Assembly (NCBI GenBank): GCA_037443945.1
Contig: JBBINH010000015.1
Span: forward strand, 4,475-68,474
Length of the DNA: 64,000 bases
Direction: 5' to 3'
DNA from: Caldilineales bacterium
Lineage (GTDB): Bacteria; Chloroflexota; Anaerolineae; J102
The notes below the pieces were generated by a model, which had not been told where the DNA came from, did no database searches, and saw only the letters and a list, made by a program, of their open reading frames with translations. The translations under genes and the position numbers were made by a program. How positions within the stretch are numbered: the first letter of the stretch is position 1; each line of letters starts with the position of its first letter. Of the stretch, positions 14,562-62,770 are shown piece by piece.

Positions 14562-15956
14562 CTACACCTGCACCAACCATAAGGCCAGGGTTTGGATGAG
14601 CGAATCGAACACGGCCGGGTTCAGGGCAATCAACAGCCCGGCCAGCAACAAAGGCCAGATCAACCAGCGCAGGCCGTCTGCCTCGCGCGGCATGGAGCGG
14701 TCGCACAGCGGACGTTGCAAATGCGGCATCAACCGGGCCAATCCTACCGTGGCCAGAAAAAGGGCCAACATGGCGCCGAGAAAAGCAACGTTGTTGCCTG
14801 TGGCGGCCAGACGCAGCATCGCCATCCGCGCCGGAAACAGCGCGCCCAAGGGCCATCCCAACAAAAACAGCCCCCCGCCCGCCAGCGCAACGCCGGCCGT
14901 CGGCAGACGTTCCCCAACCCCGTGCAGGGCCGTGTAACCGGCATTATCGCCGAAACGCTCGGCCAGGGCCTGGTAGCCCGCCGCCGTCATCACCAGCACC
15001 AACGGGCGCGCCAGGAGCATCCCCAGCATGGCATCCACGCCGAACTCGCCGCTCAGACTCCACAACAACAGCGAGGCGCCGTAATCCCACAGGAGCAGAT
15101 AACCCCAGAGCTGGCCCAGTCTTCGGGCCGAGGCCGCAAACAGCCCGGCCCACACCATCTGGATGATGGCCAGCCACGGCAGCCAGCGCGCCGGATCGGC
15201 GAACTCGGCGATCAGAGGATAGGCCAGCAAAATGCGGCGCACAAGGGCATAAGTGGTTATCTGCCAGGTGCCCACGACAAAGGCCGCTGCAAGGGGCGGC
15301 GCGTGCTCACCCAGACTGACGATCCAGCCGTGCAAGGGGACCGGGGTAAGCAACAGAATAAGGGCTATGAACAACGCCCGCCACCCCAGAACCCACAACG
15401 CGGGGTCGCGCACGCTCAGATCGGGTTGCCCAATCGTCCACGAGGCAAACAAAAACACGGGGAAAGCCAAGGTGGGGACGAGCAGGATGCGCAAGGCGCC
15501 TCGCGCCAGCCGGGGAGTCGTACCCTGCGCCGCAAAGGCCATGAAGATCACGGCCACGACCAGCCAGAGCGGTGCGGTCAGCAGCGGCGTGCTGCTTAGG
15601 GTCAAGAGCAGCGCCATCAGGATCAAGGGAATACTCGGGAACAGCGCCCGATCACTCCGGGTCCAGGCTCCGGCCAGGGCAAACAAGGCCCCCCATCCCA
15701 GCAGAAGCAAGGCGGGGGCGCGCGTGGCCGTGTTCAGATGCAGGCGAAAACCCCAGAGCGTCGCCGTGCGATCCACATTGAGGGTGCGTCCCAACCAGGT
15801 GGTTTCACCCCCATGCGGTGCCCGCCACAAAAACCAGGCCAGGACAACCAGACCGACGGCGACGACGAGGCCCGGCAGCCAGGGCAGTCGTCGCAAGAGA
15901 TGGGCCAATAACGCCAACACCAACAACCAGAGGAGAACGGCCGTCAGCAGGTTCAC
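14562..15956 (-). CDS. Polytopic membrane protein with NuoN/MrpD-like proton-antiporter signature
   Basis: 464 aa with about 14 predicted TM helices. 'PLHGWIVSLGEHAPPLAAAFVVGT' resembles the conserved 'P-H-W-(PDA)-EG-AP-P-S/AA' TM7 segment of the NuoL/M/N/MrpA/D family. Confidence 0.5.
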   Translation of the reverse strand: MNLLTAVLLWLLVLALLAHLLRRLPWLPGLVVAVGLVVLAWFLWRAPHGGETTWLGRTLNVDRTATLWGFRLHLNTATRAPALLLLGWGALFALAGAWTRSDRALFPSIPLILMALLLTLSSTPLLTAPLWLVVAVIFMAFAAQGTTPRLARGALRILLVPTLAFPVFLFASWTIGQPDLSVRDPALWVLGWRALFIALILLLTPVPLHGWIVSLGEHAPPLAAAFVVGTWQITTYALVRRILLAYPLIAEFADPARWLPWLAIIQMVWAGLFAASARRLGQLWGYLLLWDYGASLLLWSLSGEFGVDAMLGMLLARPLVLVMTAAGYQALAERFGDNAGYTALHGVGERLPTAGVALAGGGLFLLGWPLGALFPARMAMLRLAATGNNVAFLGAMLALFLATVGLARLMPHLQRPLCDRSMPREADGLRWLIWPLLLAGLLIALNPAVFDSLIQTLALWLVQV

Positions 15957-16616
15957 GCATCCTCCGGATAAGGCCAGAAACGAGCGCCGTCCACGACGAT
16001 CAGATAGGAGATGGCAAAGCCCAGCAGAAGCTCAAGGCCGGCTAAAAGGGCCACGGTGTTGACATCCGTGCGCAGGGCAGGAACGGCAAAATGGGCGGTG
16101 AGCACCCACAACGACAGGCCAAACCCCCAGCGCATGGGCCGATCCCCCAATCCCAGTCCCACCAGTCCGGCCAGGGCCAGAAAGGTGGCCAATTGTGCCA
16201 GGTCGGGGTCGAGATCGGGCAAGGCGACAACCGGTCGCTGGCTGTAAACCACCACCAGCAACAACAGCACCAGGGCCAGCCGCATCAGAGTCGAGGCATT
16301 CAAGCGCCAGCGGGGTAGCCACCACGGTCGCTTTTCTTGTTTGCGCTGGATGCTCTCCACCCGTCGCGCCGAGAGAAACCACATGACGCCCACGAGGCCC
16401 CCCACAATCCAGGGCAGCAAAGCCCATTCCGGCGGCAGCAGCCGCGTGAGCAAAATACCGACCAGCACGTGCACAAGCGCAAAAGCGGCCAGGGCAAAGC
16501 GCCAATCGCTGAATACCAGCATAAAAGCCACCAACAGCAGGCTAAGCCCTACGGCGCCTTCCTGGGCCAGCGGCGTCACACGCGCCAGAAATGTGTCCAA
16601 AGTCGGCACCGGCATG
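15953..16616 (-). CDS. Small polytopic membrane protein (middle gene of the antiporter-like trio)
   Basis: Internal ATG 'MPVPTLDTFLARV' placed a few nt after the upstream gene's stop. About 221 aa, hydrophobic. The remainder of the ORF-track extension overlaps the neighbouring gene. Confidence 0.4.
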
Positions 16617-16620
16617 GTCG

Positions 16621-18328
16621 CTACCCGCGCAACAACAGCCAAGCCAGAAGGATGACGAGGAGGACATAGCCAAACTGTCCGGCCCCGTCCACCAGATCGG
16701 CGCCGTAACCAAGGCCGATCACCAGATAGTGGCCCACCCGGCCCAGACCACGACTCAACCAGTTCAGGGTCGCTACGCGACCTACCGTCTCGCGCCAGCG
16801 CTGCAGACTGCCAAACCAACGTTCGTCATGGCGGGACAAGAGCCAGCCCATGCCTAACGGCAAGACCAGGGTCAACCACCCACCCCATCCTGCCTGAGCC
16901 GGCAGAGTCAGGGCGGAGCCCTGCCGAGAGATGCCGGTGGTCTCGACATCGGTACCGCCGAGAACGACGAGGATACCGGGATGGAGTGCGTAGGCCAGGG
17001 TCAGCCCTGCGGTCAGGATCAAGGCCCCAAGCCGGATGAGAAGAAGCTCGCGCCCACGCCACCGGACCGGTCCCCACGGTCGCAGTCCTGACCTCGGCGC
17101 GGATGGCATCGCCTGAGACGCCGATGACGGCATGGCGGTTGGGGCCATCGGCTCCGGGAGGGCAGCCTCTGCGAATTGACGCAGCAAAGTCGCCACCAGC
17201 AAGCTCTGTCCTACCAGCACGGCCAGCCAACCGAACACCCCTACAGGCACGGCGGCCAGCCGTGCCAGAGTGAGGGTAGGCGCAAAGCCGGGCGTGAAGG
17301 GTATCCCGCCGAGAACGGCCACGGCCAGGCCCAGGGGCCAACGCCACCCCATATGCCGACGCAACCAGTGGCCCAACCACCACAAGGCCGTGCCCAGACC
17401 CAGGGTAAGCACGAGCAGCAAGGCCTGCGAGGGCTCCAACCCCATCACAAGCATGGCCCAGGTGGCACGGTTGACCCCAAGCAGCGTCATGCTCAGACCT
17501 TCACGGCGACAGGCCCACGCGGCCAACGCACTGCCCAAAAGGGCCATGGCGCCCAGGGGGACCCACAACTGACTGGCCAGCAGCGAAAGGTCCAGTCGCC
17601 TCAGCAAGGCCAGAATCGCCAGGGTCGGCACTAGATGACCTGCGGTCAGACGGGCCGTCGCCGTTGTTGTGGTGGCCGCGATCCCGCTCAGCCAGAGATG
17701 GAAGGGATAGGTCGCCAACGGGATGGCGGCAGCCACGATCACCAGCCATTGCGCCTGGGCATTGAGCACCGCTGTGGCCAGGGGCATTTCTAGGCTGCGA
17801 CCGCCGTTGAACAAAGGCGCCGCCATCATGGCAAGACCGGAAAACATCGCCCAGGCCCATACCCGGCCGGCACCGGGAGCGCCGATGACCAGACCCATCA
17901 GCATCCCTAGCGCCGTCCAGACCGGCAGCAGCGTCAGCCAGTTCCCGGCCATGAGCACCAGAAGGGCTGCCCCTACCAGCAGCAACGCCCAGGCCCGCGG
18001 ATCCGCAAAACCGGGGCGAACTTCCCAGCCCGGTGCCACCAGGAGGACCGGCAACAGAAGCAGGATGACGAGACCGACCACCCAGGCCTCTCCCGGCAGC
18101 TTGAGTCGCAGCACGGTAGGCAAGCTCAACGGTGCCGACCAGCTCCAGAAGAGTTGGGCGCGGTCCAATGTACCACGCAAGACCAACCAATCCAGCAAGG
18201 TCAGCCCGGCGATACCTACCGGCAATAAAGGCCATCGCCGGACGTGCCTGCCGCCGGCCACAAGCAAAAGGGCACCGGCAACGAGGAGGAAGACCGGCCC
18301 CAGGGGCGAAGTCCATACGAAAGTCACG
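16621..18328 (-). CDS. Large polytopic membrane protein, NuoL/MrpA-like (divergent)
   Basis: About 570 aa. 'YPFHLWLSGIAATTTTATARLTAG' is a degenerate version of the NuoL/MrpD 'FHxWLPDA...SAL...G' motif. GTG start at 18328 ('VTFVWTSPLG'). Confidence 0.45.
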
Positions 18329-18488
18329 GGATCGGGATTGTAGCACGGCCGGGCATGAAGCGCGAAGCCCACGCTACGCTCAGAATGTTTGCGACCCTGC
18401 CGGTTACCGCTTCGGCCGTTTGCGGTGCTACAATGCACGGCCGATCTCCCCTTGAGAAGCTCTCCTCCGGCTATTTCACCCCCAGGAG

Positions 18489-33760: not shown

Positions 33761-34291
33761 ATGTGGATCGTCGTTGCCTTGTTACTCTTGTTGGCGGCAG
33801 GCCTGGTCATTCTGTGGCCCTATCTGCGACCGCGCGCCACGGCGTTGACGGCGGCCGAGGCTGTGGAACTTGACCCGCGGCTGGCCGAGCTATACGAGCA
33901 GCGCGAGATGCTGTACAAGGCCATTCGCGATGCCCGGTTTGACCTGGAAATGGGCAAACTGTCTCCGGCCGACTACGAACAGCAGGAAGCCAAGTTGAAA
34001 TGGCAGGCGGCGGCCGTGCTGCGCGCCATTGATGAGCTGGAACAGACCCTGTTTTCGCCTCAACTCGATGCGCGTCTGGAAGCCGAGATCGCGGCCGTGC
34101 GGGCGGCTGCTCTTGAGTCCGCCACCGAGGAGGCGATCCCCGTTCGCGAGCATAACGGCGGCGCCATCGCTGCCAAGACGCCGGTCACGGCAGCCGTTGG
34201 GGATCGCTTTTGTGGCTATTGCGGCCATAAACTGCGGCCGGGGGACCGTTTTTGTGGGCGATGTGGCCGGGCCGTCCGGCGCGAGATGTAA
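33761..34291 (+). CDS. Membrane-anchored coiled-coil protein with C-terminal double zinc-ribbon
   Basis: N-terminal TM, helical middle, and 'CGYCGHKL...CGRCG' zinc-ribbon. Lies 10 nt after ccmF and may be a CcmH/CcmI-like accessory. Confidence 0.45.
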   Translation: MWIVVALLLLLAAGLVILWPYLRPRATALTAAEAVELDPRLAELYEQREMLYKAIRDARFDLEMGKLSPADYEQQEAKLKWQAAAVLRAIDELEQTLFSPQLDARLEAEIAAVRAAALESATEEAIPVREHNGGAIAAKTPVTAAVGDRFCGYCGHKLRPGDRFCGRCGRAVRREM

Positions 34292-34433
34292 GGCGAAAGA
34301 CGGTTCAGGCTTACCCTAAGAACAGCGCGCATGTCCTGGGCAAGACCGTCGCCTGGCCTGGGACCTATGGGCATCGGGGAGAGAGCGAAGAAGACTCGGT
34401 TCCGGAGTGTGTTGGCGCAAGAGCGGCAGGCAT

Positions 34434-34473
34434 AACGTTCTAACGTTCAAACGTTCTAACGTTCTAACGTTCT
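34434..34473 (+). repeat. Five tandem copies of an 8-bp unit (TAACGTTC/AAACGTTC), each with an AACGTT palindrome
   Basis: 'taacgttc taacgttc aaacgttc taacgttc taacgttc' read directly. It sits about 80 bp upstream of the FGE-like gene start. Confidence 0.9.
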
Positions 34474-34551
34474 CACCAACAGAAGATAGAACCGAGTCGC
34501 GAAGAATGGACGGCACCGCCGGCGATGGTGATAATGGCATAATCTCCCATC

Positions 34552-35403
34552 ATGGCCCGTCGTCCTACGCATCGCCTTATCTTCATCCCGGCCGGACCGT
34601 TCATTTACGGGCCGGAAGTCGTCTACGAACGCCATGCCGGCACGCGGCCGCTGCGCCCGCGGCAGACGTTATGGCTACCGGCCTTCTCCATTCAGGCCTA
34701 CCCGGTGACCTATGCCGAATGGAAGGCCTTTTTGGACGCCACCGGCTATGCCTGGGAAGGGCGTTGGTGGGCCATTCGCCGCCGCGGTTGGCGGCGATGG
34801 TGGCGGCGTTTTGCTCCGGTGGACACGTACCCGCCGGATATGGCAAACTATCCTATCGTGGATGTGTCCCAAGCCGACGCCCTTGCCTATGCCGCCTGGC
34901 TGAGTGAGCAACACGGTCTGGCCTATACCCTGCCGACCGAGGAGCAATGGGAGAAGGCTGCCCGTGGCACCGACGGACGCACCTATCCCTGGGGCGAAGC
35001 GCCGCCACGGCCCGAACTCATGCATTTGCCGGCCATCCATACCCTGGGCCTCGACTATTTCCTCTACAACCTCTGCCGCAAACCGACCATCGAGCGCGCC
35101 CGCAGCGGCTGGTACTGGCGTATCGGCACGCCTGTGCCCGTGGGTAGCATCCCGGAGAATCGGTCACCCTACGGTTGTCTGGACATGGCCGGCAATGTCT
35201 GGGAATGGACTCTCAGCCCGTATCACCCGGACGATCCCCGTTTTCATGTCGTCAAAGGCGGATCGTGGGGTTATAGCCCCCATCATACTGCCTGTTACGT
35301 GCGCTCGGCCTGCTCCATCACCATCCCCAGCGCCGTCTATCGCGCCCAGGGGACCGGTTTTCGCCTGGTGTGCAACGACCCGCTCCCTCCACCCCCGCCA
35401 TGA
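34552..35403 (+). CDS. Formylglycine-generating enzyme (SUMF1/EgtB/PvdO) family protein
   Basis: FGE-sulfatase fold signatures 'YPIVDVSQADALAYAAWL', 'RLPTEEQWEKAARG', 'GNVWEWT' and 'RVVKGGSW'. Confidence 0.8.
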   Translation: MARRPTHRLIFIPAGPFIYGPEVVYERHAGTRPLRPRQTLWLPAFSIQAYPVTYAEWKAFLDATGYAWEGRWWAIRRRGWRRWWRRFAPVDTYPPDMANYPIVDVSQADALAYAAWLSEQHGLAYTLPTEEQWEKAARGTDGRTYPWGEAPPRPELMHLPAIHTLGLDYFLYNLCRKPTIERARSGWYWRIGTPVPVGSIPENRSPYGCLDMAGNVWEWTLSPYHPDDPRFHVVKGGSWGYSPHHTACYVRSACSITIPSAVYRAQGTGFRLVCNDPLPPPPP

Positions 35404-36839
35404 CCGCCGATGCCCGTGCGATGGGCCGCAGCCTGTCGCTGATCAGCCTGAATAAGTTGGTCCAACTCCTCGGCGGCGTCCTCTGGGCCGCCATCATCCC
35501 CCGCTGGTTGGGACCCGAAGTCTACGGCCGCTTTGCCCTGGCCATGTCCATTTCGTTGCTCCTGTGGTGGGTGGGTGACTTCGGCGGATTGGAGGTGTTC
35601 GGCCGTTTTCTGCCGGGGCTGGCCGAGCGCGATCCGGGCGCAGCCCGCCGGCTGTTCGGGCAGATGTTCCTGCTGCGTTGTCCGGTGGGCCTGAGCCTGG
35701 TGCCCTTTATGCTCATCGTCGGGCCCTTGATCGCGCCCTGGCTGGCGGGCTGGCCGGCAGCGCTGGTAGGCCTTGCGGCAGGCTTACACATCATCTCGTG
35801 GACGAGCTATCACACCCTTTACGCCCGTAAAGAAATGGGCAAATGGGCCGTGGAGCTCTCGTGGCGGTTGATCACGCAAGTGCCCCTTGTCCTGCTCCTG
35901 GGTCGATGGGGACTGACGGCGCAGATGGCGGCCTACACCCTGAACGAGTTGATCTATCTGCTGCTAGGGCTGTGGTGGACCCGAAACGACTTCAGCCGCG
36001 CCGGGCTGCGACCGGACCGGCGTTTCTTGCGGCCTTATCTGGCCGTAGGGCTGGGTTTTTGGGTCACCAATGTCGGCCTGATCGTGCTCTTTCGCGCCGG
36101 CACCACCCTGGTGCAGCTCTTCACCCGTGACGCGGCCGAGGTCTCCTATTACGACCTGGCCCTGGTGGTCTTTTTCCTGATCTACACCATTGTCGATCAG
36201 CTTATCCGCGCCTTTCTGCCCATGGTCAGCACCTTCAAAGAGGAAGGACAAGACGAACGGGTGGGCACCTGGTTGCAGATCGTAGCGCAGTGGAGCGCCG
36301 CTTTGGGGATCCTGTTCGTGGTGGTTGTGCACTACACGGCCGCCTGGATCATGCCCTTCATCCTGGGCGTCGCCTATAGCCGATCGGCCGCCGTGCTGCA
36401 GGTGATGCTGCTGGCCTTGCCGGCCCTGGCCCTGGTCAGCGTGGGCACGGTGGCAACGGCCGTGCGTGCCAGCGCCCGGGCCAAACTGATTGCCATCCTC
36501 GGCGGCATCGTGGCTTTCGGCGGCAGCAGCCCCTGGCTCATTGCCCGGTTCCAGGCCATCGGCGCTGCCTGGGCCCTGGCCGTAGGCCTGGTGGTCTATG
36601 CCGTCGTCTTATTTGCCTTCATCCGTCATGACCTGCGGCTGCGTTGGTCGGCGTTGCTGGGCCTGATGGCCTTAGCACTGCCGTTGCTGGCCCTGCGTCC
36701 GCTCATCGGCGAACGGTTCGGGCTGGCCCTCACCCTCAGTCTCCTGGCTACGGTCGGGTATGTCGGCCTGGCTTTGATCCTGCGCCTGCTTTCACCGGCT
36801 CCCCTGCGGCTTGTGCCGCGCTTGCTGTTCTCTCGTTGA
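35400..36839 (+). CDS. MOP-superfamily polysaccharide/oligosaccharide flippase-like membrane protein (Wzx/MurJ-like)
   Basis: About 480 aa with roughly 14 TM helices. Start ATG overlaps the FGE stop (ATGA). Confidence 0.7.
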   Translation: MTADARAMGRSLSLISLNKLVQLLGGVLWAAIIPRWLGPEVYGRFALAMSISLLLWWVGDFGGLEVFGRFLPGLAERDPGAARRLFGQMFLLRCPVGLSLVPFMLIVGPLIAPWLAGWPAALVGLAAGLHIISWTSYHTLYARKEMGKWAVELSWRLITQVPLVLLLGRWGLTAQMAAYTLNELIYLLLGLWWTRNDFSRAGLRPDRRFLRPYLAVGLGFWVTNVGLIVLFRAGTTLVQLFTRDAAEVSYYDLALVVFFLIYTIVDQLIRAFLPMVSTFKEEGQDERVGTWLQIVAQWSAALGILFVVVVHYTAAWIMPFILGVAYSRSAAVLQVMLLALPALALVSVGTVATAVRASARAKLIAILGGIVAFGGSSPWLIARFQAIGAAWALAVGLVVYAVVLFAFIRHDLRLRWSALLGLMALALPLLALRPLIGERFGLALTLSLLATVGYVGLALILRLLSPAPLRLVPRLLFSR

Positions 36840-36842
36840 AAC

Positions 36843-37175
36843 GTGCGCCTGTCGGCGCGTTGTATCCCGTTACCCCGTTTCCCGAATCTTGGCACCATGC
36901 TGAGCCTGAGCGATCGTCTTCGTCCTGCCGAACATACGGCCTCCGAAACCACAGAAGGCCAAACCATCATCATCAACTTGCAAACCGGTACCTTGTTTTC
37001 CCTCAATACCACCGGCACGTTCATCTGGCAACGACTGGACGGCCAGACCACCCTGAACGAAGTGGCCGCCGCCCTGGCCGCAGCCTTTGGCGTAGGCACC
37101 GAGGTCACAGGACCGGATGTGTTGGAGCTGGCCACGGCGCTCTTGCAGGAAGGTCTGGTCTGCAAAGTTCATTAG
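36843..37175 (+). CDS. PqqD-family protein (RiPP recognition element-like)
   Basis: 'EGQTIIINLQTGTLFSLNTTGTFIWQRLDGQTTLNEVAAALAAAFGVGTEVTGPDVLELATALLQEGLV' is a close pattern match to the PqqD/RRE consensus. Translated start is probably the internal ATG 36897. Confidence 0.75.
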   Translation: MRLSARCIPLPRFPNLGTMLSLSDRLRPAEHTASETTEGQTIIINLQTGTLFSLNTTGTFIWQRLDGQTTLNEVAAALAAAFGVGTEVTGPDVLELATALLQEGLVCKVH

Positions 37176-37185
37176 CACAACCGAC

Positions 37186-39039
37186 ATGTGCGGCATTATC
37201 GGCTCGTATCGCCGGGATGGCGTGGTACCCGATGTGGCGGCGGGGCTTGCCTGTCTTATCCATCGCGGCCCCGATGATGAGGGGCACTGGCGGGAGCGAA
37301 GCGACCGGATTGCCGTGGTCCTGGCTGCGCGACGCCTGGCGATTATCGATCAGGAAGGCGGTCATCAACCCTTGGCGAGCGAAGACGGTCAGGTGGTGGC
37401 CGTTCAGAACGGTGAAATTTACAACTACCGTGAGCTGATGGCCGAGCTGGCAAAACGAGGGCATCGCTTTCGCACCCGTAGCGATACCGAAGTCCTGGTC
37501 CATGCCTGGGAGGAATGGGGCGAGCGTTGCCCGGAGCATCTGCGCGGCATGTTCGCCCTGGCCATTTACGACCGCCGTCGGCAGACCCTGTTTCTGGCCC
37601 GCGACCGGTTTGGGATCAAGCCGCTCTTCTACAGCTACGGCCGCGATTATCTCGTCTTTGCCTCGGAGCTGCCGGCTCTGCGACGGCTATTGCCAGGGGT
37701 CCCCCGGCTCAACGTCCGTCCCCTGCCGCGGCTGCTCAGCCTGGGCTGGATACCCGGCCCGGAGACGCTGTACGAGGAGGTCTTTCACCTGCCGCCGGCC
37801 CACGCCCTGATGCTCAGCCCAACCGAGATGCGGCTGTGGCGCTACTGGCAACCGACGCCACCCCCGGCCGCCGCACTGCAGCGGCCCCGGCATCCGGGCG
37901 AGACCTTGCGGGCGCTGCTGCTCACCGTGGTGGACCTGCACCGCCGGAGCGATGTGCCTGTCGGCGCGTTGTTGAGCGGTGGCCTCGATTCCGGCCTCCT
38001 GGTGGCCCTGTTGCACCGTCTTGACCGGAACGAGCTTCACACTTTTAGCCTCGGTTTTACCGACCCGGCCTACGACGAAAGCCGCTATGCGCGCATGGTG
38101 GCCGAGTCCCTGGGCGTGCGTCATCACATGGTGCGTTTTGACGAAGAGGCCATGGCGCACCTGCCCCGCCTGATCGTCTCTTATGGTCAGCCCGTGGGCA
38201 GTGCCACCCACATCGCCATCGCTCTGCTCTTTGCCGCCTGCGCTGCCCGGGGCTTGAAGGTGATCCTAACGGGTGAAGGGGCCGACGAGCTGTTCGGCGG
38301 CTATCCCTGGTATCGCGGTGAAGCGCAGTTGGCCCTCCTGCGCGGATTACCGACGCCCTTGCGTCAGGTCGCCATCGGTCTGGCACGCCGGTGGCGGGTG
38401 TCGGCAACAGCAGCCGAGCTCTTGCGCCGCCCGGACCTGTCCTTGCCGGAGCGCTATCGACGCTGGCTCAGTCCTCATGCTCCTGCGGATGCCCTCGACT
38501 GGCTCGTCCCTGAGCTGCGCCATCGGGTTGACACCTCATTGCCCTGGACGGCGCCCGACCCTGACCTGCACCCCCTTCATGCCCTCACCCTGCTTGACCT
38601 GCAAAGCCGTCTACCCGATTTTATCAATCTGGAGGTCGATCGGATGAGCATGGCTGCCAGCGTGGAGGCGCGCGTGCCTTTCCTCGACCATGGGCTTTGG
38701 GAGGCGATCTTGCCATGGGATCCGGGCCTCAACGGCCGGGAAAAGGCCCTGGAACGAAAGGCCGCGCAGGGCCTGTTGCCCCCGGTTATCCGGCGGCGGC
38801 GTAAACAAGGCCTGGCTGCGCCTCATGGCCGATGGTGGCGACAACCGCGCTTGCCCGATTGGGCCGAGGCCTGTCTGACCCCGGCGGCGCTGACGGCCAC
38901 GGGGCTTTTTCGGCCCTCGGCCGTAGCCGCATTGCGGGCCATCCATCGCGAAGGCCGCGGTTCCTATGCCACACCGCTCACGGCCATTCTGACCACGCAG
39001 CTCTGGCTGCAACAGGAGGATAAGCCCTCCATCGCCTGA
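37186..39039 (+). CDS. Asparagine synthetase (glutamine-hydrolysing) family amidotransferase (lasso-cyclase/AsnB-like)
   Basis: 'MCGIIGSY' Ntn glutaminase start with the Cys retained, and PP-loop 'LLSGGLDSGLLVALL'. 617 aa. ATG lies 10 nt after the PqqD stop. Confidence 0.9.
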   Translation: MCGIIGSYRRDGVVPDVAAGLACLIHRGPDDEGHWRERSDRIAVVLAARRLAIIDQEGGHQPLASEDGQVVAVQNGEIYNYRELMAELAKRGHRFRTRSDTEVLVHAWEEWGERCPEHLRGMFALAIYDRRRQTLFLARDRFGIKPLFYSYGRDYLVFASELPALRRLLPGVPRLNVRPLPRLLSLGWIPGPETLYEEVFHLPPAHALMLSPTEMRLWRYWQPTPPPAAALQRPRHPGETLRALLLTVVDLHRRSDVPVGALLSGGLDSGLLVALLHRLDRNELHTFSLGFTDPAYDESRYARMVAESLGVRHHMVRFDEEAMAHLPRLIVSYGQPVGSATHIAIALLFAACAARGLKVILTGEGADELFGGYPWYRGEAQLALLRGLPTPLRQVAIGLARRWRVSATAAELLRRPDLSLPERYRRWLSPHAPADALDWLVPELRHRVDTSLPWTAPDPDLHPLHALTLLDLQSRLPDFINLEVDRMSMAASVEARVPFLDHGLWEAILPWDPGLNGREKALERKAAQGLLPPVIRRRRKQGLAAPHGRWWRQPRLPDWAEACLTPAALTATGLFRPSAVAALRAIHREGRGSYATPLTAILTTQLWLQQEDKPSIA

Positions 39040-39285: not shown

Positions 39286-39957
39286 ATGCTTTGCTACATT
39301 GACCTCGAACCCTCCTCGGCTTTGACCGACCCGCGCCTGCGCAAGGAACATCAGCGGGACCGCCACCACGAACAGGCCCTGTTCGCCAGGCTGAGCGGGC
39401 GACCTTGCCAACTGCTGGTCCTGGAACAAGACGTTGACCGCCTTGACACCATCGAGGCCGATGCCGTTTTGCTCAGCGGCCTGCGCAGCGATTTCACCGC
39501 CCATGACCCGGAGCATCTGGCGCGGCTTGGAGAGTTTATCCGCCGTTGGCCGAAGCCCCTCATCGGCTTTTGCGGCGGCCATCAACTCATCGCCCATGCT
39601 TTCGGCGCCGTTATCGGCCCATTAGGCCCCCTGTCCCCGGGCGAAGCCGATCCCGACCCCGGTTTCGGCCCCGGCATGCGCAAAGAGGTGGGGATGACCG
39701 CCGTTACCCTGCAGGAGGACGACCCACTGTTCACCGGTCTGCCCAATCCGGCCGTCTTCTACGAAGAACACTACTGGGAGGTCAAAAACCTGCCGCCCGA
39801 TTTCATCTGTCTGGCCACCGGTCCCCTGTGCAAGATCCAGGCCTTGCGCCATCGCCACCGTCCCATTTACGGGACGCAATTCCATCCCGAACGCGCCGAT
39901 GCCGCCCACCCTGCGGGCTGGCGGCTGCTGCAGAACTTTTTTGCCCGCCTTCCGTAA
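39286..39957 (+). CDS. Class I glutamine amidotransferase-like protein
   Basis: Nucleophile elbow 'LIGFCGGHQL' and 'YGTQFHPE' His/Glu motif. RBS 'ggagga'. Confidence 0.8.
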   Translation: MLCYIDLEPSSALTDPRLRKEHQRDRHHEQALFARLSGRPCQLLVLEQDVDRLDTIEADAVLLSGLRSDFTAHDPEHLARLGEFIRRWPKPLIGFCGGHQLIAHAFGAVIGPLGPLSPGEADPDPGFGPGMRKEVGMTAVTLQEDDPLFTGLPNPAVFYEEHYWEVKNLPPDFICLATGPLCKIQALRHRHRPIYGTQFHPERADAAHPAGWRLLQNFFARLP

Positions 39958-59124: not shown

Positions 59125-60120
59125 CTACAAATCCGAAAATTTTAGATAGTTTTCGAACAAAAGACTAAAAATCCGATCATTAGGCTCGAGTAAAAGACCG
59201 CGTCGACGTAGCAGAAAGAGCGCGGGGGCATCGCCGGTGCCGGGCGTTTGGCCGTGGGTCAACATCCAGAGTACCTGTTGTTCATGCCGATGGAGGGAGC
59301 GGAAGATGCGCTCACAGGCTTCGCGAATGGCCGGCTGAGCCAGGAGATCGCCGGTGGGGTTCCGAGAGGAAGGGGGATCGATCAGGTATTGCTCATGGAC
59401 CAACCTGAGCAACCTGGCATGCCCGCCGGCCAATTGGTAGATGAAACGCAGCGTGGAATTCGCCAGTGGCTGCGCCGCCTGAGCGTTGAGAAATTGCAAC
59501 ATGTGCCAGGCATCGGCCCGGTTATAAAGGCGCAGAACGAAGATGTGGGAGACAAACAACCGGTAAAATTTGCTCTCCTCGGTGAGCCGAATCGTGCGGC
59601 CCAGGCGATGGGGCAACCGATTGACAAACAGCATAAAAGCAAGGGCATCACGGTTTTCGTCCCGCAGGGTGCGGAGCTGCTCCAACAAGGCCAGCGGACC
59701 GCGGCGCAGGAGTTTATCGGCATCGTCGAAAACGAGAAGAAGCCGTTGATCGGGTTGGTGGCAAAAGGCGTTGGCCAGTTGACGGGTGATGAGATTATCG
59801 CGCGCGACCGGATCGCTGCTCAGGGGAATCACGTTACTCGGCGATAAGACCTTCTCCGTCTCACGACGCAGCAGGTGCCAAAAGTCCACCTGACCTCCGT
59901 TCCAATCATTGCAATCCACAAGCACCGTTTTCAGGACGATGGCCGTGCCATCGGGCGCAGACACACGACCATAATGTCGCATCAGACAATTGACCAGATT
60001 CGATTTACCGCTACCGGGAATACCGATAAAAACACAGGAAAGACCCCGCCGCGCATAATCGGTGATCAAGGCCAATTCATCCCGGCGATAATGGGGGGAA
60101 AAACGGGGAAAGGAGGACAT
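59125..60120 (-). CDS. P-loop NTPase (AAA/STAND-like)
   Basis: Walker A 'GIPGSGKSNL' and Walker B 'LLLVFDDADKL'. 331 aa. Lies 4 nt upstream of the SPFH gene. Confidence 0.7.
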   Translation of the reverse strand: MSSFPRFSPHYRRDELALITDYARRGLSCVFIGIPGSGKSNLVNCLMRHYGRVSAPDGTAIVLKTVLVDCNDWNGGQVDFWHLLRRETEKVLSPSNVIPLSSDPVARDNLITRQLANAFCHQPDQRLLLVFDDADKLLRRGPLALLEQLRTLRDENRDALAFMLFVNRLPHRLGRTIRLTEESKFYRLFVSHIFVLRLYNRADAWHMLQFLNAQAAQPLANSTLRFIYQLAGGHARLLRLVHEQYLIDPPSSRNPTGDLLAQPAIREACERIFRSLHRHEQQVLWMLTHGQTPGTGDAPALFLLRRRGLLLEPNDRIFSLLFENYLKFSDL

Positions 60121-60190
60121 AGGAAGTCCTCATCGTATCCGAGGGCTAAAAAACCGGCGTCAAAAAGTATAGACCGACTTTTTTCTGCCA

Positions 60191-62770
60191 TCAAGTTGCA
60201 GCGATACCGATCACGCGCTGCAAGCAGATATCGATCAAAGGCGTTGCCTCTGCCAACGCGTTGGGGAGATCGAGCACGGCCTGCAGTTTGCCCGAAGCAA
60301 AGGGTTCCACCTTCAACGGCAGGTCACGCAATCGGTCGGGGGAGATGGCCAGGGCCAACCGCATCTTGTCAGGGCGATCCACAGGCCGAAAGAACAAGGC
60401 CACAAGGCCGCCATCGGCGGCATGAACCTCACATCGTCGGCTCTGAATGTGGACATCCAGCGCCGGCCATCGTCGACGCACGTACTCGGCCATGGTCCAC
60501 AGCGGTTCGGCGGGTGTTTCATCCCTCTGCCGGGGGTCGGCGCCGAACAACAGGGCCGGTAGAGGTTCGGCGCCGTCCAGATAGGCTTCCAGCTCGTGCA
60601 ATAACCGCAAGGCCTCACCGTAGAGCAGAAGCGTATGTTCGAAGAATCGCACGCGTGCGGCCAGGAGCAAGAGACGAACGCTTGTCGCCAACCATAGGCG
60701 TGGCTTCCAGTATTCCGTATCGCGTAATCGACGGGCCTCCTGTTCGATTTGGCTAAAAATGGCCTGTTGGAAATATCGCGTTAGAGGACGCAAGAAAAGA
60801 TTCTTTTCTTCCACAGTTACTACATACGTATCACCACGCCGATGATGGCGAATCTTATCCAAGCTTATATAACCTGCCATTTCCGGATTACGAATATAAC
60901 GATATAAACATGCATCTTCTAATAGTATAGCATAATCATCGATATAATCGCCATTTTGGTTCATATGATCTAAATCAATAAAAAATACCTTTATTTTAGA
61001 ATTATCTGTTCTAGAGTCATCGATCATGATATTACGTGTATGACAGTCTCCGTGGACTAATCCTATTGTTGACGGCCGCAAAATACGAACATGTTTCTGC
61101 AAAACGCGCAAATAATGATTAAGAGAAGAATAACAAAAATCGTTATACTCTAATTTCTGTAATTCTACACGAAATTGTGATTTATTACAAATAAACATTA
61201 AAGCAGTATTTTCTACAGGACTTAAGTACAATCGAGATAAATGATCACCAGGTAGGTTATCACGACTCTTGCGAAAACTTGTACAATTATGCAATTTTCT
61301 AAGAGATTCTCCTAAAGCGACGATAATGTTTTCGAGTCTATTGCGATGACTCTGTGCCAAAGCAATGCGATCGATGTTCGCTAAAAAGGTCTCAAGGGTC
61401 TTTTTGTCCTTCAGATCCTCCATGATGAGATAACCCTGTCCCTCCTCGGTGGTCGAAAGCGCGATCGGAGGGTGGCCGTGGGTGGCAAACAAAGGGCGGA
61501 TCTCCGCCGGTAAGCGCCTGTATTCCTCTACGGCCCGACGGAGATCGGCGTAGCGTCCTCTCTTGACGATGATCTGCTGCGGTCGCGATTCGTAGACCAT
61601 GCCGGGATGCTCTTGACTGTAGCTCGGCAGGCGCACGAGAAACTCGACCTCAAAGACCTTTTCCGAACGCACCCCTCCACTGATGGCCTCAACCTGAAGG
61701 ATTTGGATCTGCAGTTGGCGGAGTAGGACCTCCTTCAATTCCTCCTTGAGTTTATGCTGAAGCGTATCGTAGGCGCGGCGATGGCTATCCTGATGCATCC
61801 GGAATAAGCGGCCGTAAATGGCCCGGTTGAGTTCAGAACCATGACGCGTCGCCAACAGACGCAAAACAAGGCAATGGAAGACGAAATCTTGGGTCGCTAA
61901 AGTACCGGATGCGCTGTACCCGCGATGCAGATGCATAATCGCTTCGGCAACCGTAGCCTCGGCATCGGGTTGGCCTTGAAAATGCTGGCAGAGCTGAATG
62001 GCGCAGTACAGAGGCTCGGAACCAAAGGCTGTCGTCTTTTGCACGACGGCAATAAGGCGATCCCGTACCTTTTGCAACGTATGCTCATCCTCGAGATACC
62101 CGTAGCGCTTCAAGATGTCGAAGGCATAGCTCAGCTCCTGCCAGGAGTGGAAAGGATCGGGCTTCTGGGAATGGTATTCCCAATCCTGCCAGGCCTTCCG
62201 GATGGCTTGCAGGGCGCGTTCGCAACGTTGACGTATCCCGCGAGACAGCGAGGTGGACTGGGCATGCCGATTGAGCCAGTAGAGGGTATCGAGATAGATG
62301 AGGGTCGCCAGATAGGGGCGCGGCAAATCAAGAAGGTCTTGACGCCATCGGCGGTCGAGGGTGTGGAAGTCCTCCCATAAATGTTCATCCTTGAAATGAT
62401 TGGTCCAGGCCAGGGTTTTGAAGCGGCTGGGGTTGAAACGAGGGGAGTTCTCCCACTCGAAATCACCCCGATCGGGGCTTTCGGAAACATTGACCAGCCA
62501 GGCCACGCCGTTTTGCAGAGGTTCCTGCAAGGGCGATGAAGGTCCCAACAGATGAAAAGCCTCCACAGCGTGACAGACATTGCGCAGCATTTTTTGGGGC
62601 TCGCGATCAACCCAGGCTCCACTTTCCGGATCCTGAGTGATGCAGAGGAAATCGATCACATACATGGCCAAGCTGGCATCTTGCTCCAGGGTAGAAGCGC
62701 CGCTTGCCTGGAAGGGATACATCTCCCAAAAGGCATGAAAATTGGGAGGGTAAAAGGTGGAAGTGCTCAT
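60191..62770 (-). CDS. Large multidomain protein with APH/protein-kinase-like catalytic core
   Basis: 859-aa continuous ORF. 'LVHGDCHTRNIMIDD' (HGDxxxxN catalytic loop) and 'FFIDLDHM' (DFG-equivalent IDLD). The N-terminal ~400 aa and C-terminal ~180 aa are unassigned. Confidence 0.7.
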   Translation of the reverse strand: MSTSTFYPPNFHAFWEMYPFQASGASTLEQDASLAMYVIDFLCITQDPESGAWVDREPQKMLRNVCHAVEAFHLLGPSSPLQEPLQNGVAWLVNVSESPDRGDFEWENSPRFNPSRFKTLAWTNHFKDEHLWEDFHTLDRRWRQDLLDLPRPYLATLIYLDTLYWLNRHAQSTSLSRGIRQRCERALQAIRKAWQDWEYHSQKPDPFHSWQELSYAFDILKRYGYLEDEHTLQKVRDRLIAVVQKTTAFGSEPLYCAIQLCQHFQGQPDAEATVAEAIMHLHRGYSASGTLATQDFVFHCLVLRLLATRHGSELNRAIYGRLFRMHQDSHRRAYDTLQHKLKEELKEVLLRQLQIQILQVEAISGGVRSEKVFEVEFLVRLPSYSQEHPGMVYESRPQQIIVKRGRYADLRRAVEEYRRLPAEIRPLFATHGHPPIALSTTEEGQGYLIMEDLKDKKTLETFLANIDRIALAQSHRNRLENIIVALGESLRKLHNCTSFRKSRDNLPGDHLSRLYLSPVENTALMFICNKSQFRVELQKLEYNDFCYSSLNHYLRVLQKHVRILRPSTIGLVHGDCHTRNIMIDDSRTDNSKIKVFFIDLDHMNQNGDYIDDYAILLEDACLYRYIRNPEMAGYISLDKIRHHRRGDTYVVTVEEKNLFLRPLTRYFQQAIFSQIEQEARRLRDTEYWKPRLWLATSVRLLLLAARVRFFEHTLLLYGEALRLLHELEAYLDGAEPLPALLFGADPRQRDETPAEPLWTMAEYVRRRWPALDVHIQSRRCEVHAADGGLVALFFRPVDRPDKMRLALAISPDRLRDLPLKVEPFASGKLQAVLDLPNALAEATPLIDICLQRVIGIAAT

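Follow-up and report, generated by a model that had tools for sequence, protein, structure and literature searches.

Four adjacent plus-strand genes in a 64-kb stretch of Caldilineales DNA (the window throughout this text; GC about 63%) encode, in this order, a protein of the formylglycine-generating-enzyme family (FGE-like), a predicted flippase of the MOP superfamily, a small PqqD-family protein and an asparagine synthetase (AsnB) homologue. We find that PqqD and AsnB are a conserved pair and not chance neighbours: a discrete PqqD followed by an AsnB-type enzyme, usually together with one orthologous FGE-like protein, is the core of a family of gene clusters. Our preferred reading, to which we assign a probability of slightly under one half, is that this region represents a pared-down member of a cluster family found throughout the Chloroflexota, related to the split-B lasso-peptide clusters and yet non-canonical. 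The window copy is the minimal form, with no substrate gene, and this limits the conclusions that can be drawn from the window alone.

The PqqD-AsnB pair and its clusters in the Chloroflexota

The PqqD gene (36897-37175, plus strand, 92 aa) matches PF05402 with an E-value of 8e-17, above the gathering score. Its start was set at the ATG at 36897, a position kept across ten homologues in the alignment. Ten nucleotides downstream begins the gene of the AsnB homologue (37186-39039, plus strand, 617 aa), whose product starts with MCGIIG and matches GATase_7 (5e-49) and Asn_synthase (PF00733, 3e-80). An earlier note on this DNA, made from the sequence alone, had placed these two genes and their two upstream partners at the positions given here and had taken PqqD and AsnB for a B1-C-type pair as known from lasso-peptide clusters. 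The identities of the four genes, the PqqD-type assignment and the 10-nt distance were all confirmed.

Homologues of the AsnB protein split into orthologues of at least 59% identity and a large group at 39-48%. We inspected twelve independent AsnB contexts that cover identities of 42-100%, and in 10 of them a PqqD gene lies just 5' of AsnB. One locus, L068, consists of the bare pair in an unrelated neighbourhood with no flippase nearby. In six other contexts (L064, L066, L067, L069, L071 and L072) a gene for a B2-type leader peptidase (Transglut_core3, 160-175 aa) stands between PqqD and AsnB. The two copies tested, those of L064 and L066, reach 43 and 38 bits on the lasso B2 model NF033537, whose cut-off is 33; the copy of L069 was missed by the gene caller and is plain in translation, with a visible Cys/His/Asp motif. 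The adjacency in 10 of 12 contexts and the above-threshold B2 proteins between the two genes in relatives bear out PqqD and AsnB as a real pair, with evolutionary ties to the B1-B2-C triads of lasso type.

Where the clusters are fuller, the order that recurs is NTP_transf_5, DUF5693, FGE-like, B12 radical-SAM, HprK-like (on the opposite strand), PqqD, B2 and AsnB. They often add a family 2 glycosyltransferase (GT2), a PMT_2-type glycosyltransferase of the GT-C fold, an Exo_endo_phos protein and a second MOP paralogue that shares about 30-36% identity with the flippase of the window; locus L063 has the fuller gene set minus B2. The FGE-like proteins of these clusters are 55-67% identical to that of the window. 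The earlier note had also proposed that the pair is combined with an FGE-like protein and a MOP flippase in a way not described before. This holds, since both partners recur with the pair at deep divergence, and our literature search found no description of the combination: no account turned up that joins PqqD to a glutamine-dependent AsnB, to FGE-like proteins or to MOP flippases, nor one on DUF5693.

PqqD-family proteins are peptide-binding recognition elements (RREs) of peptides that are made by the ribosome and modified after translation (RiPPs). The best NCBIfam matches of the window PqqD are lasso PqqD chaperones, whose cut-offs it does not reach (39 bits against 70, and 35 against 80), and the protein is 37-45% identical to the PqqD proteins of the B2-containing clusters. 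On the model of PqqD proper, TIGR03859, it scores 32.9 bits for a cut-off of 46, and there are no pqq genes among the annotated neighbours. We therefore consider the window PqqD a candidate discrete RRE resembling lasso B1 proteins.

A word-indexed search with PqqD alone returned 5 close relatives, and an exhaustive profile search returned 6289. Two-domain tandem PqqD proteins are common among the close relatives (P0195, P0196, P0203, P0205, P0206, P0216 and P0291), some of them with unannotated extensions and reaching up to 659 aa; the long relatives that were scanned are such tandem proteins, and none of them is fused to AsnB or B2. PqqD proteins that share 54-55% identity with that of the window are also found in other contexts. 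One of them (L031:246-524) has a LysM-repeat protein and FtsY after it, and another (L032:1359-1643) comes after an HtrA-like protease and a NUDIX hydrolase, the available L032 sequence ending right after PqqD. The subfamily of the window PqqD is therefore not always found beside MOP or AsnB.

As the earlier note had stated, neither a B2 protease nor a precursor lies beside the window pair. Tblastn searches of the 64-kb window, among them one with the B2 proteins of the relatives, and six-frame searches of the window with hidden Markov models (HMMs) gave no match to B2, NTP_transf_5, HprK-like, B12 radical-SAM or DUF5693 (all E>0.09 in the HMM searches; for B2, using Transglut_core3/NF033537, the best E was 0.12). 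We also looked for a precursor with a YxxPxL leader, Thr at position -2 and Asp or Glu at core positions 7-9, and found no convincing or conserved small open reading frame (ORF) in the window or in the Caldilineales loci. A regular-expression scan of the GC-rich six-frame translations of the window for lasso-type leaders gave noise alone, and clustering of small ORFs returned just shadow frames of real genes.

In three of the B2 clusters, a small ORF of 21-22 codons with the pattern M(T)YxKPxLTxH[DE][DE]Lxx[VI]TFSSH lies beside NTP_transf_5. These ORFs, all on the plus strand, are L064:236-301 (MTYTKPTLTKHDELKSVTFSSH), L069:1941-2006 ((M)YEKPELTEHDELTQITFSSH) and L072:2953-3018 (MYVKPELTKHEDLKQVTFSSH). 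All three have a Shine-Dalgarno sequence and begin at a start codon 0-2 codons 5' of the Tyr, and they end at the identical position in three different stop codons. Of 20 codons, 4-6 differ synonymously and 5-6 non-synonymously. A YxxPxL-type recognition sequence is bound by lasso and PqqD RREs (PMC12710340), and the YxKPxL of the small peptide matches it. We consider this ORF likely to be an unannotated precursor or scaffold peptide. It has 12-14 residues after YxxPxL and no Asp or Glu at core positions 7-9, and therefore cannot form a lasso.

An HMM of this peptide found no match in the window or in any Caldilineales locus. It found one weak relative, beside a distant PqqD in locus L043. There (L043:9932-12516), after the distant PqqD (99 aa), come a 644-aa protein without a Pfam match and then the small ORF MKKEKKKYTKPIIKKNDPLVNITFASVGGAATITGGSVASGAATPT, which in its first part is similar to the Chloroflexota peptide, and a sulfatase-TPR gene is found upstream. 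The locus may represent a different RRE-dependent system.

The AsnB homologue

Across 120 homologues, truncated N-termini aside, the residues C2, R50, N75-G76-E77 and D100 and the PP-loop S264-G-G-x-D-S are invariant or nearly so. The AsnB homologue is accordingly predicted to be an intact Ntn-glutaminase plus PP-loop amidotransferase, in agreement with the earlier description of it as a real glutamine-dependent amidotransferase. That description had also treated the N-terminal Cys as a mark of the window copy; this part did not survive, because the B2-linked AsnB relatives retain the N-terminal Cys and the glutaminase site too, so that the Cys is a family-wide trait. As the glutaminase residues are invariant in the 120 homologues, the family appears to be selected to hydrolyse glutamine, and such selection fits amide formation, not a purely intramolecular cyclisation.

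The protein passes TIGR01536, the model of glutamine-hydrolysing asparagine synthase, with 418.2 bits against a cut-off of 267.1. It fails TIGR03108, the amidotransferase of exopolysaccharide loci of the XrtA/PEP-CTERM type (415.1 vs 816.9 bits), the lasso cyclase model NF033535 (225 vs 525) and the cyclase model NF033561 (51 vs 300); on the model of AsnB proper, NF006949, it has 262 bits for a cut-off of 499. The B2-linked relatives score in the same way and fail the lasso-cyclase models. Judged by these models, AsnB is not a typical lasso cyclase. McjC and other canonical cyclases are not known to have this N-terminal Cys. A search of a plasmid collection for annotated lasso cyclases gave 'asparagine synthase' annotations alone, and the one Bacillus context that was inspected is not a lasso cluster.

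With E. coli AsnB (PDB 1CT9) and the TIGR01536 family the window protein shares the N-terminal Cys nucleophile, the R/N-G-E/D glutamine pocket, the SGGxDS PP-loop and a score above cut-off. It differs from E. coli AsnB in that its best solved relative is the hydroxyamidotransferase 7YLZ and in that it is persistently paired with PqqD; this lasting partner argues for an acceptor other than free L-aspartate. The TIGR03108 amidotransferase is the best or near-best NCBIfam match of the window AsnB and its relatives (415-501 bits) and is likewise found among glycan-type genes. The window protein nevertheless stays far under the 817 bits demanded, and no exosortase or PEP-CTERM genes were seen; TIGR03108 is itself a hypoth_equivalog model of a family whose function is unproven.

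The locus might be an ordinary lasso cluster that has been split, with B2 and the precursor elsewhere in the genome and AsnB acting as macrolactam cyclase. The triads of PqqD, B2 and AsnB in relatives, accompanied by HprK-like and NTP_transf_5 proteins as in paeninodin-type clusters, speak for this, as do the lasso chaperones at the top of the PqqD matches. The nearest systems so far described are lasso clusters that also encode an HPr-kinase homologue and a nucleotidyltransferase, such as those of paeninodin and pseudomycoidin (PMC8498205), and asparagine synthetase is the label that lasso cyclases routinely receive (PMC12710340). With these clusters the window shares a discrete PqqD-type RRE beside an enzyme of the Asn-synthetase family, and its relatives share B2 (Transglut_core3), the HprK-like protein, NTP_transf_5 and a short YxxPxL peptide with a Ser near the C-terminus. 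However, the window set lacks B2, as well as a kinase, a nucleotidyltransferase, a precursor and an ABC exporter, and B2 is missing from the entire 64 kb. Its AsnB keeps the full glutaminase site, which is invariant even in B2-linked homologues and would be of no use to a cyclase, and it falls short on both cyclase models while passing TIGR01536. The sole conserved peptide found in the relatives is too short and lacks the ring-forming acid, and the FGE-like, B12 radical-SAM, DUF5693, GT2, PMT_2 and MOP proteins are not lasso components. We consider a split lasso cluster improbable.

The FGE-like protein, the flippase and the Caldilineales locus

The FGE-like gene (34552-35403, plus strand, 283 aa) matches PF03781 (FGE-sulfatase) with an E-value of 4e-46 over profile positions 4-254 of 255. 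This full-length match is what the protein has in common with FGE and with other PF03781 proteins (the EgtB C-domain, pFGE/SUMF2, PvdO and PorK/GldK). None of the NCBIfam subfamily models is above or near its cut-off, a signal peptide is not evident and, unlike EgtB, the protein has no DinB domain. Among solved structures it is closest to the EgtB C-domain, to ToxD and to SUMF2, the last of which is non-catalytic. The earlier note had called it an FGE-family oxidase. In eight orthologues, the C-terminal motif GGSWGYSPHHTAC-x-VRSAC has its first Cys replaced by Ser or Leu and its second by Ala in different members, and because neither Cys is invariant the oxidase label is unjustified. We take these two Cys to be the counterparts of the Cys pair of human FGE; alignments of the C-terminus to solved structures were obtained only for SUMF2, OvsA and CalU17. 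With its Cys pair unconserved, the protein is probably not a canonical formylglycine-generating enzyme, and it may be non-catalytic or have a new activity. Orthologues 55-79% identical to it occur in PqqD-AsnB clusters of distant Chloroflexota. At two unrelated loci, TIR_2 plus FGE-sulfatase fusion proteins are encoded a few kb from PqqD-AsnB clusters (L063:10777-12276, minus strand; L066:5472-7184, plus strand, which also has EAD7).

The gene that follows (35400-36839, plus strand) encodes a 479-aa membrane protein with 14 helices and a MurJ-like fold. It has no match in Pfam or NCBIfam even at E<=10; many homologues 60-70% identical to it carry PF01943. Its AlphaFold model has a predicted local distance difference test (pLDDT) score of 89 and a predicted template modelling (pTM) score of 0.88. 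In Foldseek the top matches are MurJ structures, with template modelling (TM) scores of 0.67-0.73 over about 500 columns, that is, over the full length; WzxE reaches 0.58-0.62 and MATE proteins 0.55-0.66, all of these matches, MurJ included, at probability 1.00. The protein is thus predicted to be a 14-helix flippase of the MOP superfamily, as had been proposed. Sequence identity to the solved flippases is only 13-18%, in spite of the full-length superposition on MurJ.

A scan of a genome collection with the flippase found orthologues 60-70% identical in 24 species, which belong to the Caldilineales, the Anaerolineae and related Chloroflexota. At 16 loci with visible flanks, the orthologue lies amid unrelated housekeeping genes (FHA, PPIase, ClpB-like, SurE and EF-G), and an HMM search found no PqqD within 10 kb of it. 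The gene is therefore a core gene, and we regard it as a core envelope gene of the Caldilineales/Anaerolineae. Its inclusion in the pathway by the earlier note stands in part: MOP-type flippases do recur with the pair at deep divergence, but this one is a core gene in unrelated contexts of 16 other species, and any part it plays in the pathway is putative. It is a possible, not a certain, exporter of the pathway product.

The flippase also bears on an alternative in which AsnB amidates a lipid-linked precursor, either the peptidoglycan stem peptide, in the manner of LtsA/AsnB1, or a uronic acid; the MurJ-like protein would flip this precursor, and PqqD and the FGE-like protein would serve as adaptors. 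AsnB-family enzymes are known to amidate meso-diaminopimelic acid in peptidoglycan. The core status and MurJ-like 14-helix fold of the MOP protein fit such an envelope role, as do the nearly equal scores of AsnB on TIGR03108 and TIGR01536 and the GT2, PMT_2-type GT-C, DUF5693 and second MOP flippase genes in the clusters of relatives. Against it stand the peptide-binding nature of the PqqD family and the addition, in relatives, of a B2 of the leader-peptidase type and of a gene for a conserved small peptide. The TIGR03108 score is far under cut-off (415 vs 817), the MOP orthologue occurs without an adjoining AsnB, PqqD or FGE in the 16 species, and the PqqD-AsnB pair occurs without a nearby flippase in L068. 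We regard this alternative as unlikely, if somewhat less so than a split lasso cluster.

The window-type arrangement was found again in at least 8 other Caldilineales loci, which is more than chance and answers the call of the earlier note for a synteny check in relatives. PqqD lies directly 3' of MOP in one Caldilineales subclade (L005, L007, L008, L014, L018, L029, L030, L033 and L062), and AsnB follows PqqD wherever the sequence continues, L007 excepted. In that locus the order is GT2, PMT_2/TPR, DUF5693, MOP', FGE, MOP and PqqD, and the AsnB orthologue is on another contig. Among MOP loci with visible flanks, FGE lies 5' of MOP in 7 of the 8 that have PqqD and in 0 of the 16 that do not (Fisher p ~2e-5 by our own arithmetic, with shared ancestry ignored). 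In L009 (1-4400), tRNA genes are followed by the MOP orthologue, a PrpD/MmgE-like gene and then the GATase and ABC permease genes of the window; the tRNA genes take the position of FGE and the PrpD-like gene that of PqqD-AsnB, so that FGE and PqqD-AsnB are both absent. The accessory genes thus come and go jointly around a fixed core MOP gene.

All four window genes are under purifying selection and none is decaying. Relative to L029 (locus 87-98% identical), the ratio of non-synonymous to synonymous substitution rates is 0.025 for FGE, 0.125 for MOP, 0.176 for PqqD and 0.184 for AsnB, which makes the FGE-like gene the most conserved of the set. The AsnB protein is identical on contig JBBITA010000024.1 of the metagenome-assembled genome (MAG) GCA_037441015.1, and the nearest flippase and AsnB homologues carry Caldilineales annotation. 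Of the operon formerly described as linked by 4-nt overlaps, the FGE/MOP junction stands, where the two genes share ATGA at 35400-35403. The other junctions do not: 57 nt without overlap lie between the MOP stop at 36839 and the PqqD start at 36897, and PqqD and AsnB are separated by their 10-nt gap.

Another alternative holds that the four genes have no joint function, being a housekeeping Asn synthetase, a lipid flippase of housekeeping type and two small accessory genes that are adjacent by shared ancestry in one order. In keeping with this, AsnB passes the asparagine-synthase equivalog cut-off, MOP is a core gene, the wider window is housekeeping in character (ccm genes, HisRS, ClpB-like, KsgA), the order is broken in the MAG JAGFJG01, MOP and PqqD lie 57 nt apart, and in relatives the distance from PqqD to AsnB can be as much as roughly 100-180 nt. 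Yet the PqqD-AsnB adjacency persists down to 42% AsnB identity in otherwise unrelated neighbourhoods, FGE keeps company with PqqD in 7 of 8 loci versus 0 of 16, and FGE and PqqD-AsnB are missing together in L009. The chances of this alternative appear slim, on a par with those of the split lasso cluster.

Upstream of the four genes lie ccmH, thioredoxin, ccmF and zinc-ribbon genes, and downstream a gene for a class-I glutamine amidotransferase (GATase) and ABC transport genes; farther out in the window are HisRS, KsgA, a ClpB-like gene and other housekeeping genes. Two neighbours were considered as members of the set and rejected. The class-I GATase (39286-39957) has an insertion of 5 kb between it and AsnB in L029 and occurs in L009, where PqqD-AsnB is missing, and the zinc-ribbon gene (33761-34291) adjoins FGE in the closest relative, L027, only.

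The 260-nt gap 5' of the FGE-like gene contains 5.1 copies of a tandem repeat, TAACGTTC, at 34433-34473 (no strand assigned; Tandem Repeats Finder score 75, 93% matches), which is possibly a regulatory site. The corresponding gap in the closest relative (L027:575-900) has longer repeats, of about 60-70 nt, instead. Just 3' of the TAACGTTC repeats, a sigma-70-like match, TGGACG-17-GATAAT (34507-34535, plus strand; 9 of 12 consensus positions), ends 17 nt 5' of the FGE-like start. It is a weak candidate for the operon promoter, as the consensus scan found 2 sites in the region for 0.9 expected. Rfam families gave no match across the whole window. Elsewhere in the window, three successive minus-strand ORFs at 14562-18438 (464, 288 and 605 aa) have no Pfam match, and the AT skew over them is +0.35, opposite in sign to that of the stretch at 12-14 kb that precedes them (-0.25). 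At 60000-62770 the GC content falls from about 0.64 to 0.50 around an 859-aa minus-strand ORF whose sole Pfam match is an APH phosphotransferase domain; this segment is possibly foreign DNA.

A possible RRE-guided amidation pathway

If the window is indeed a reduced member of the Chloroflexota-wide family, the PqqD protein would bind a short peptide of ribosomal origin, whose gene lies elsewhere in the genome, and hand it to AsnB. AsnB would then adenylate a carboxylate of the peptide, either an Asp/Glu side chain or the C-terminus, and the acyl-adenylate would be resolved with ammonia from the glutaminase domain of AsnB to give an amide, where lasso cyclases instead make an intramolecular lactam. 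The FGE-like protein would make or recognise a further modification, and the accessory genes may have settled on the flanks of the core MurJ-like flippase.

Several observations weigh against this reading. Neither the window nor any of the Caldilineales loci of its type has a precursor-like ORF, B2, kinase or radical-SAM gene, so the peptide substrate here is purely inferred. The AlphaFold model of PqqD, made from an alignment of 5 close sequences, has a pLDDT of 46 and was not used for a fold search, and the RRE fold therefore depends on the Pfam match. No PqqD-AsnB fusion occurs among the best 150 PqqD relatives from 1.84 billion representatives, and two AsnB homologues (L061 and L065) have no PqqD nearby. 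AsnB passes the equivalog cut-off of TIGR01536, so the enzyme might simply make asparagine, and in the MAG JAGFJG01 the FGE-MOP-PqqD genes and the AsnB orthologue are on separate contigs.

A more specific proposal would extend the preferred reading to an undescribed class of Chloroflexota RiPPs. Its substrate would be the 21-22-residue peptide, bound by the PqqD RRE and processed by B2, by the glutamine-dependent AsnB (through amidation), by the B12 radical-SAM and FGE-like proteins and by the kinase and nucleotidyltransferase, and the pathway would be coupled to GT2, GT-C, DUF5693 and MOP. The window would then contain a minimal derivative that does without B2, its FGE-like, PqqD and AsnB genes having been recruited around a MurJ-like flippase. 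We put this forward tentatively, as a possible but doubtful extension.

RRE proteins are used as class-independent RiPP markers, and adjoining Asn-synthetase homologues are automatically called lasso cyclases. Automated miners would overlook the window cluster, since B2 is absent from it, or wrongly call its relatives lasso clusters. To our knowledge, almost no peptide natural products have been characterised from the Chloroflexota. The full glutaminase site, together with a PqqD pairing that occurs with or without a leader peptidase, points to RRE-guided amidation as a distinct chemistry, and the recurring link to a flippase, a GT-C and a GT2 suggests a peptide-glycan conjugate or an envelope modification.

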